Position numbers and translations under genes: made by a program. Source: Escherichia phage Zumzum. Taken from it: a stretch of DNA of 44,738 bases. The notes under the pieces were generated by a model, which worked only from the letters and a program-made list of their open reading frames with translations, did no database searches and was not told the origin of the DNA. The stretch is from sequence record PP925847.1; one strand, written 5' to 3'. Of the stretch, positions 10,161 to 10,544 are shown one piece after another; the stretch's first letter is position 1, and every line of letters starts with the position of its first letter.

Positions 10161-10223
10161 TATGCAGTCCCCTTTTTTATGCAGTTGCCGATTGACATTG
10201 TATCAGCGATTTTAAAACAAACC

Positions 10224-10398
10224 TTATTCAGTCTCAGACGAGGGGGGCCGTTGACCCCCGTCTAGTCTGAAAGACTGGGGTTTGTCCCGCCTGTCCCGAT
10301 CGGCTGAAAACCGCGGCAGCACTGGTGGGGATGGGGTGCTGTCCCGCTTTGTCCCGCCCCGCATTTGTCCCGCTTTCTGTCCCGTTTGTTTTATGCAC
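10224..10398. repeat. copy 1 of a ~175 bp structured repeat (nested palindromes, TGTCCCGC direct repeats, AT-rich end), extended by two tandem ~65 bp units to 10540
   Basis: Conserved blocks match 27109-27281 at about 90%; read directly from sequence. Confidence 0.85.
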
Positions 10399-10544
10399 GA
10401 AATTCGAATAGGTATGCACATTTCAGGGGTGGGACAAAACGGGACGTCCCGCCTGTCCCGCTTTGAGTTTATGCAATGAAAGTGATTAGATATGCGGTTT
10501 TACAGAGGCGGGATAAAACGGGACGTCCCGCCTGTCCCGCTCCG

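Follow-up and report, generated by a model that had tools for sequence, protein, structure and literature searches.

The window considered here, 44,738 nucleotides of Escherichia phage Zumzum (PP925847.1), is the complete or near-complete genome of a Dhillonvirus, a virulent E. coli siphophage of the HK578 / SSL-2009a / SO-1 type. Its minus-strand genes extend between about 30034 and about 300; the plus strand holds the replication genes, at 30301-42797. Within the minus-strand series, the T (GT) gene and the tape-measure gene are separated by a non-coding, repeat-rich gap, hereafter region A, and a second copy of its core, region B, is found 16.9 kb away, where it starts right at the stop codon of a gene coding for a 754-residue primase-helicase with an AAA_25 domain. 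These two regions, and their probable role in the replication of the phage, are the subject of the present text.

The limits of region A are set by its two neighbours. The open reading frame (ORF) of the tape measure starts at 10160 on the minus strand, and the frame ending at 10545-10547, open from about 10866, looks like a frameshift extension, of gpT type, to the chaperone gene at 10859-11236. The initial annotation of this stretch, made from the letters alone, had described 10161-10544 as non-coding DNA between the GT stop and the tape-measure start, and this description is borne out. In Sodalis phage SO-1, the T-type frame is annotated as gp16 and directly adjoins a repeat_region named 'region A'. 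The corresponding GenBank record (GQ502199) indeed already annotates both places as repeat_region, under the names 'region A' and 'region B' (one of them at 11214..11597), with the comment 'consists of direct, inverted and palindromic repeat sequences; sequence similarity with region B', and a literature search returned no paper analysing either of them. A BLASTN search of region A against phage genomes, which the initial annotation had suggested, retrieves the same element at the same place in the relatives: 158 phage records, nearly all of them Dhillonvirus, match with 80-95% identity, and query coverage is at least 80% in 151 of these 158. Regions A and B are both found in essentially all 158 Dhillonvirus records.

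The gap has been treated in different ways by the depositors of these genomes. It was either left empty, or labelled 'terminator' or 'repeat_region', or filled with one or two 'hypothetical proteins' (OR896838, OK310512-14, OR756193, PP627283 and others). Since 1-nt indels occur in the spacers of the aligned copies, no ORF is conserved inside region A, and the annotated 'hypothetical proteins' are, as judged from these alignments, spurious. Annotators are therefore warned that the ORFs called in this tail-operon gap do not appear to be real genes. Region A is organised as follows.

10161-10544 (384 bp), no strand: region A, the entire non-coding gap from the T (GT) stop to the tape-measure start.
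10197-10205, minus strand: candidate extended -10 element TGATACAAT for the tape-measure gene, read by eye; ATTGTATCA is invariant in 17 region A copies.
10229-10277, about 50 nt: hairpin module CAGTCT-C-AGACG-A-GGGG(loop)CCCC-CGTCT, followed by AGTCT-GAA-AGACT.
10283-10299, plus strand: repeat pair 1 (TGTCCCGCCTGTCCCGA), kept in the aligned region A and region B copies.
10299-10332: spacer (the 'cassette'), at whose end stands a degenerate repeat in reverse orientation, GGGGAT in the window and GGGGAC or GGGAC in relatives.
10340-10385, plus strand: repeat pairs 2 and 3, with TGTCCCG at 10340, 10350, 10366 and 10378; the repeats are invariant and the spacers vary.
10388-10425: AT-rich stretch with two TATGCA boxes (TTATGCACG and GAATAGGTATGCACA).
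10421-10499: tandem unit 1 (period 79), with a cluster of reverse and forward repeats at 10430-10461 that includes the palindrome CGGGACGTCCCG, and with two TATGCA-type boxes.
10500-10544: tandem unit 2 (partial), with a repeat cluster at 10509-10540 and the palindrome at 10519-10530, adjoining the T stop codon.

The most conspicuous component of region A is the GTCCCG repeat, of which 14 sites are present, 10 in forward and 4 in reverse orientation (2 degenerate). The extended form GTCCCGC occurs 22 times in the window, compared to 9.2 +/- 3.2 times in shuffled sequences, with 8 copies in region A and 7 at 27169-27269 in region B. The six forward TGTCCCG sites of 10283-10384 follow each other at 9, 48, 10, 16 and 12 bp, and thus form three pairs whose members are 9-12 bp apart, with 16 and 48 bp between pairs. 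The five or six repeats had initially been described as lying one helical turn apart, a regularity that the actual spacings do not display. The second motif of both regions is TATGCA, often in the form GAATAGnTATGCA, and the GAATAGnTATGCA box is common to region A, region B and the Salmonella phage St162. As for the two tandem units, their presence was correctly noticed, but their period is 79 bp (starts at 10421 and 10500) instead of about 65 bp; similarly, the first copy of the palindrome CGGGACGTCCCG does lie at 10440-10451, whereas the second occupies 10519-10530 and not 10520-10531. The remaining positions given in the initial annotation, namely GTCTCAGAC at 10231-10239, the stem at 10236-10263, AGTCT-GAA-AGACT at 10264-10276, TTATGCACG at 10391-10399 and GTATGCACA at 10412-10420, are all correct. 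The depositors of phage WFI placed a terminator on the minus strand in tandem unit 2.

The hairpin module is conserved in its stems. Folded as single-stranded DNA, it reaches z scores of -3.2 on the plus strand and -3.8 on the minus strand. Across 16 variants, its 14 base pairs are kept, with 99.6% of cells paired, and one compensatory change, from A-T to G-C, is found in a divergent lineage. The loop varies freely, with a length of 6-9 nt and at least nine different sequences. In alignments of 17 distinct copies each of regions A and B, taken from viral contigs and GenBank phages, the mean column conservation in A and B, respectively, amounts to 0.95 and 0.93 for the repeats, to 0.97 and 1.0 for the TATGCA boxes, and to 0.87 and 0.85 for the remainder, with a value of 0.997 for the hairpin stems. 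The bases between the GTCCCG sites change freely, with 1-nt indels, while the sites themselves are near-invariant. This combination of short conserved motifs with free spacers and a free loop points to protein-binding sites rather than to an RNA or a gene.

Region B and the genes next to it complete the list of the features on which the argument depends.

27109-27285: region B core, with the hairpin at 27114-27162, six forward and one reverse GTCCCG sites (27168-27270) and TATGCA boxes at 27275-27296.
26897-27429: whole non-coding region from the primase-helicase stop to the next minus-strand gene, with six GCAACCAAT motifs.
27430-29694, minus strand: the 754-residue primase-helicase, candidate initiator, with an AEP-like N-terminus (by motifs), a RepA/AAA_25 core and, at about residues 660-740, a predicted winged helix at the C-terminus.
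29705-30034, minus strand: a 109-residue helix-turn-helix (HTH) protein (Pfam HTH_23 / Sigma70_r4_2), alternative candidate binder, just upstream of the primase-helicase.

The recurrence of the modules near 27109-27281, claimed in the initial annotation, is confirmed by a 94% match between 10224-10301 and 27109-27186. The borders of the shared module are sharp, at TTATTCAGTCT, and each genome carries two copies only. The 34-bp cassettes of the two regions (10299-10332 and 27184-27217) had been regarded as unrelated; they are identical at 15 of 34 positions, and both have a common CCGCG core and then a reverse GGGAC site at the end. Within the region A copies, and likewise within the region B copies, the respective version of this spacer is conserved across phages. 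The 'cassette' is a diverged spacer between head-to-head repeats. Moreover, the same hairpin-loop and flank variants occur in region A of one phage and in region B of another, so that the module is interchangeable between the two sites. In Escherichia virus TH11 (MT446389.1, UNVERIFIED), a 515-bp tandem duplication at 150-1040 comprises the whole of region A and the 3' end of the T gene; the expansion may be genuine or may have arisen in the assembly.

The protein encoded next to region B is labelled as a replicative helicase-primase in PHROGs. Its AlphaFold model has a pLDDT of 80, and the best size-normalised matches of the central domain are to the hexameric RepA helicase of RSF1010 (1nlf/1g8y, target-normalised TM score of 0.66-0.68). 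The motifs FFDIDR and HVFHTT, read from the sequence without Pfam support, are those of an AEP-like primase at the N-terminus, and a winged helix is predicted at the C-terminus (residues ~660-740). The winged helix is the fastest-evolving part of the protein: its identity is 21-38% in relatives where the overall identity is 44-49%, but 52-60% in the lineage whose repeat has stayed the same, and beyond residue ~691 the protein is not alignable with its homologue from Edwardsiella phage eiAU.

In six lineages, the 3' end of the primase-helicase gene is directly followed by an array of short repeats; five of these lineages are related, and the sixth is an unrelated Prim-Pol/AAA_25 contig. In the Dhillonviruses and in a metagenomic lineage of 69% identity, the repeat after the gene is GCGGGACA, and the latter lineage keeps the hairpin too. 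In St162, whose primase-helicase is 44% identical, GGGGAGA is found six to seven times after the gene and nowhere else in the genome, together with the same GAATAGTTATGCAG box as in region B. The lineages L046 (49% identity) and L047 (46%) carry, respectively, TTGCGAGT repeats in both orientations and GGGGATC-type repeats at this place, and phage eiAU (45%) carries a CGCCCCG repeat. Finally, the high-GC contig L049 (IMGVR_UViG_3300032240_001439, 7054-9280), which was found only through its palindrome, encodes a sequence-unrelated Prim-Pol and AAA_25 primase-helicase (22% identity in the ATPase core); right after the stop codon of this gene stand at least eight forward and several reverse copies of GTGTCCCG, including ACGGGACGTCCCGT, the core repeat being the same as in the window. 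The array is thus linked to the candidate initiator gene by position, its repeats are lineage-specific, and it is in the winged helix that the protein has diverged most.

The two sites also change together. Phage eiAU (genus Eiauvirus) has a large non-coding region at each of the two places occupied in the Dhillonviruses, one after the primase-helicase gene (26894-27792) and the other between T and the tape measure, spanning the ends of the record. These two regions share CGCCCCG, an 11-mer (TTATTGATTTA) found nowhere else in the eiAU genome, and GCAACCAAC motifs. A comparable hairpin stands in the tail-operon site, upstream of the tape-measure gene; it shares the ACGGGGG...CCCC.CGT core but differs in its outer stem. 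In the 69% lineage, region A is likewise present upstream of the tape-measure gene, while in St162 the site is found after the helicase only, the T and tape-measure genes not being separated by a gap. From this distribution, the tail-operon copy is an old feature of the Dhillonvirus/Eiauvirus branch. The repeat type has changed in concert at both sites between genera, and the two sites of one genome appear to be kept matched to one lineage-specific reader. As a separate observation, the gap between T and the tape measure holds a small opposite-strand ORF, possibly a moron, in eiAU (L066, 42365-42718) and in the 69% lineage (L050, reverse complement, ~9160-9345); Dhillonvirus proper has no such ORF there.

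Taken together, the location of an array with lineage-specific repeats 3' of the primase-helicase gene and the co-variation of the two sites point towards replication, and the clustering of GTCCCGC (15 of the 22 copies in the two regions) is counted in the same direction. We consider it probable that region B is an iteron-type origin, and that region A, its paralogue in the tail operon, is a binding site for the initiator and acts as a second origin or as a site that interacts with replication forks. Among the four options originally proposed (iteron-type origin, packaging site, regulator-binding array and structured RNA), the iteron or protein-binding array has thus been retained, and the structured RNA and the packaging site have not.

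In the mechanism that we propose, region B, immediately downstream of the primase-helicase gene, would be the primary origin. The paired, both-orientation GTCCCG(C) repeats would be bound by a phage protein, most likely through the C-terminal winged helix of the primase-helicase, the 109-residue HTH protein being a less likely binder. The primase-helicase would then act as a self-loading helicase-initiator, similarly to SaPI Rep or P4 alpha, and its binding beside the AT-rich stretch with the TATGCA boxes would cause the duplex to open. On the strand exposed in this way, the conserved G/C hairpin would extrude, and it may serve as a loading or priming signal. Region A, which lies in a transcriptional break of the tail operon, would be another origin or else a site to which the initiator is tightly bound and which forks run into, as proposed for oriR of SPP1. 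A more speculative version, to which we attach limited weight, is that region A is a programmed initiator-bound site and not a firing origin; it might then be a fork barrier that triggers the switch to concatemers, or a device coupling replication to the expression of the tape-measure and distal tail genes, with the hairpin as the single-strand loading or priming signal of the fused AEP-primase/RepA-helicase. We know of no phage for which iterons have been described together with both an ssi-like hairpin and a self-loading primase-helicase of RepA type.

Four known systems come closest to this arrangement. The oriV of the IncQ plasmid RSF1010 combines iterons and an AT-rich stretch with the ssiA and ssiB hairpins, which are primase recognition signals, and is served by the RepA helicase, the RepB' primase and the RepC initiator. 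RepA is the closest structural match to the phage helicase core, and the RSF1010 origin likewise pairs iterons with conserved hairpins. However, RSF1010 uses three separate proteins and 20-mer iterons, whereas the activities are fused in a single phage protein and no RepC homologue was seen; besides, the phage hairpin, whose role we infer, has no sequence similarity to ssiA or ssiB. In the satellite P4, octamers (TGTTCACC) occur in two loci, ori and crr, both of which are bound by the C-terminal domain of the fused alpha primase-helicase. In crr, the repeats are carried by tandem units of about 120 bp, which resemble the 79-bp units of region A.

In the staphylococcal pathogenicity islands (SaPI), Rep (or PriRep) is a self-loading helicase-initiator, to which a primase is fused in SaPI5, and its C-terminal winged helix binds 6-12 iterons that lie immediately downstream of rep and flank an AT-rich region (PMC9371898). 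Region B resembles the SaPI origin by its short repeats in both orientations, 7 in number, placed after the stop codon of the primase-helicase gene, and by the predicted C-terminal winged helix of the encoded protein. Nevertheless, SaPI Rep is a superfamily-3 AAA+ helicase, while the phage protein has a RecA-type RepA/AAA_25 core and is not a member of the SaPI Rep family, and the islands have a single origin, whereas the phage has a second copy 16.9 kb away and a conserved 50-nt hairpin. The two-site layout is closer to that of SPP1, a 44-kb virulent headful siphophage in which two origin-type regions with the same direct repeats as well as a DNA-unwinding element rich in AT lie about 13 kb apart, oriL within the initiator gene and oriR between transcription signals, where it interrupts the conserved order of the late structural genes (PMC6316719). 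At oriR, the initiator is proposed to stall forks and to trigger the theta-to-sigma switch to concatemer synthesis (PMC6316719). In the window, too, the same repeats stand at the candidate initiator gene (region B) and within the late genes (region A), 16.9 kb apart, and the same holds for eiAU with another repeat. The differences are that gp38 of SPP1 is a separate initiator, working with a loader and a DnaB-type helicase, that oriL lies inside gene 38 and not after it, that oriR lies between head genes and not between T and the tape measure, and that there is no sequence relationship. Since the candidate initiator belongs to the AAA_25 primase-helicase family and not to that of gp38, the relation to SPP1 is one of analogy only.

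Several observations weigh against an origin with a second initiator-binding site. The repeat spacings (9, 48, 10, 16 and 12 bp) do not form a regular helical array. DnaA boxes, which the initial annotation had suspected in region A, are not enriched: TTATNCACA with at most one mismatch gives 31 matches genome-wide for 25.9 expected, two of them in region A and none in region B, and a DnaA-dependent origin was rejected on these grounds. The richest 40-mers have 72.5% AT in both regions, at the 99.97th percentile of the genome, which speaks for an origin, but this AT-richness is moderate, and the maximum lies on opposite sides of the module (10191 in region A, 27269 in region B). GC skew tracks gene orientation and is uninformative, its cumulative minimum at 30331 being the switch of divergent transcription. 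Lineages with different repeats also have different types of small HTH protein upstream of the helicase: the 109-residue protein is present only in lineages with GCGGGACA repeats, and the others have a Cro-type HTH_3 protein there. The HTH protein therefore fits equally well as binder in this comparison, which does not separate it from the winged helix, both varying with the repeat. In addition, the repeat clusters are small in L046, L047 and eiAU, where some of them could be promoter or operator elements, and Jerseyvirus and K1G-like phages have no array after the helicase gene, although their helicases align only partly and their gene order is different. Finally, literature searches aimed at this returned no experimental evidence of origin activity, protein binding or transcripts for any Dhillonvirus.

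The main rival, which we regard as unlikely, is an array controlling transcription at operon boundaries. The GTCCCG repeats would then be operators, for example for the 109-residue HTH protein, and the regulator would time the tape-measure and distal tail genes after region A and the small-gene/lysis block after region B, while leaky termination would be the role of the palindromes after the T gene, and the hairpin would serve as an RNA end or as a stabiliser. Both copies do lie within the 30-kb path of minus-strand transcription, the invariant TGATACAAT of extended -10 type stands between the hairpin and the tape-measure start, region A of eiAU and of the 69% lineage also has GCAACCAA-type promoter or operator motifs, and the type of the small HTH protein changes along with the repeat. 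Weak terminator-like hairpins are called in the tandem units by the WFI depositors and by a consensus scan, but promoter and terminator calls are no commoner than in shuffles, and, since TGATACAAT was not called by the scan, the tape-measure promoter is a candidate one. Furthermore, the module stands about 20 bp from the next promoter in region A versus about 180 bp in region B, the arrays of St162, L046, L047 and L049 keep to the primase-helicase gene, at its 3' end, and not to a downstream gene, and 14 sites with a hairpin would be an unusual operator for a single regulator. The hairpin at 10229-10277 was also examined as an intrinsic terminator and rejected, as it has no T-run (hence no U-tract in the RNA) on either strand; the only candidates, weak repeat palindromes, are no more numerous than in shuffles. 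That the shared module of about 175 nt would encode a structured non-coding or cis-acting RNA, such as an antiterminator, in two copies and with the cassette as a variable loop, seems improbable. The put RNAs of HK022 are a precedent for two-copy cis RNAs, and the 50-nt hairpin is stable, nearly invariant and marked by one compensatory change. The folding of both strands, proposed as a check in the initial annotation, gave a mixed outcome: the minus-strand module of region B folds better than shuffles (z of -2.9), owing to the hairpin and the inverted repeats, but the 177-nt module of region A does not (z of -0.36 and -0.87 for the two strands). The Rfam scan proposed at the same time returned nothing at the gathering score, the matches with E<1 being far below threshold. 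Outside the hairpin, conservation is confined to motifs of 6-8 nt with free, indel-bearing spacers, neither strand has a conserved promoter ahead of the module, and relatives have unrelated repeats at the same place.

Two further explanations are given very little credence. Repeat arrays are typical of the binding sites of terminase small subunits, and the records of WFI, PTXU06 and Zar3M begin inside region B and that of eiAU inside its region A, as could be expected from a packaging recognition site (pac or cos) or from a genome terminus. However, pac sites are normally located in or next to terS, and the terminase genes are about 5 kb from region B and about 11 kb from region A. The WFI record has no terminus annotation and opens about 100 bp before the first gene, and the record starts within region B (WFI and others) were set aside as arbitrary linearisations. 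Nor would a pac site be expected to stay linked to the primase-helicase gene from lineage to lineage, and such a site is unlikely because the genus packages by headful, as predicted by PhageTerm, with assemblies that circularise (PMC9022532). Similarly, a selfish, MITE-like insertion (miniature inverted-repeat transposable element) or a functionless recombination scar could be advocated from the sharp module borders at TTATTCAGTCT, from the 515-bp tandem duplication in TH11 and from the lack of a gap between T and the tape measure in the related Kagunavirus St162. The latter is the only sense in which the element can be called 'inserted', as the initial annotation did, and it does not behave as a mobile one: two copies per genome are kept at fixed positions, both sites are filled in essentially every Dhillonvirus with purifying selection at the level of the motifs, and eiAU fills the same two sites with a different repeat. 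No terminal inverted repeats or target duplications were found in the sequence of region A, and neither plasmids nor 5,426 E. coli genomes were matched by region A in a blastn search.

Other repeated motifs are present in the window. GCAACCAAT, of which six copies were listed above, has 15 sites, all at gene boundaries (17, 16118, 16132, 26364, 26919, 26950, 27040, 27321, 27356, 27410, 30225, 36931, 39873, 39890 and 41552). Several of them sit in a recurring promoter-like unit, TTGCnn-17-TATATTGGTTGCAC (e.g. 26953-26925 on the minus strand and 16094-16149 on the plus strand), and variants are found in relatives, GCAACCAAC in eiAU and L046 and GC(A/T)GCCAAC in St162 and L047; the motif is probably an operator or a phage-specific promoter element. 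Hairpins of the form AAAAAGGGGCC-loop-GGCCCC at gene ends (11239-11259, 17292-17312, 42798-42818 and 1310-1337; one follows the chaperone G region, another precedes 42825) resemble ordinary intrinsic terminators. Direct repeats rich in GACGACGA, at 30417-30775 and 33731-33934, code for acidic low-complexity stretches in two plus-strand genes, 30301-30819 and the gene for the Enc34-type single-stranded DNA-binding protein (33163-33966). At 44088-44288, inside the minus-strand ORF 42825-44738, a unit of 42-63 nt is present as three imperfect tandem copies, and AATTGCA occurs five times in 120 bp at 7095-7215, inside the minus-strand gene 6884-7540.

Dhillonviruses are abundant and widely used coliphages, represented in the BASEL collection, by SECphi18 and among therapy candidates, and to our knowledge their replication has not been studied. 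If the interpretation of region B as an origin and of region A as a second initiator-binding site is right, it would provide these phages with concrete origins and with a candidate initiator, and would offer an E. coli phage example of the two-origin arrangement of SPP1. It would also extend the rule that iterons directly follow the helicase-initiator gene from the superfamily-3 Reps of the SaPI type to the RepA/AAA_25 primase-helicases, and this rule could then be used to predict origins in many phages.

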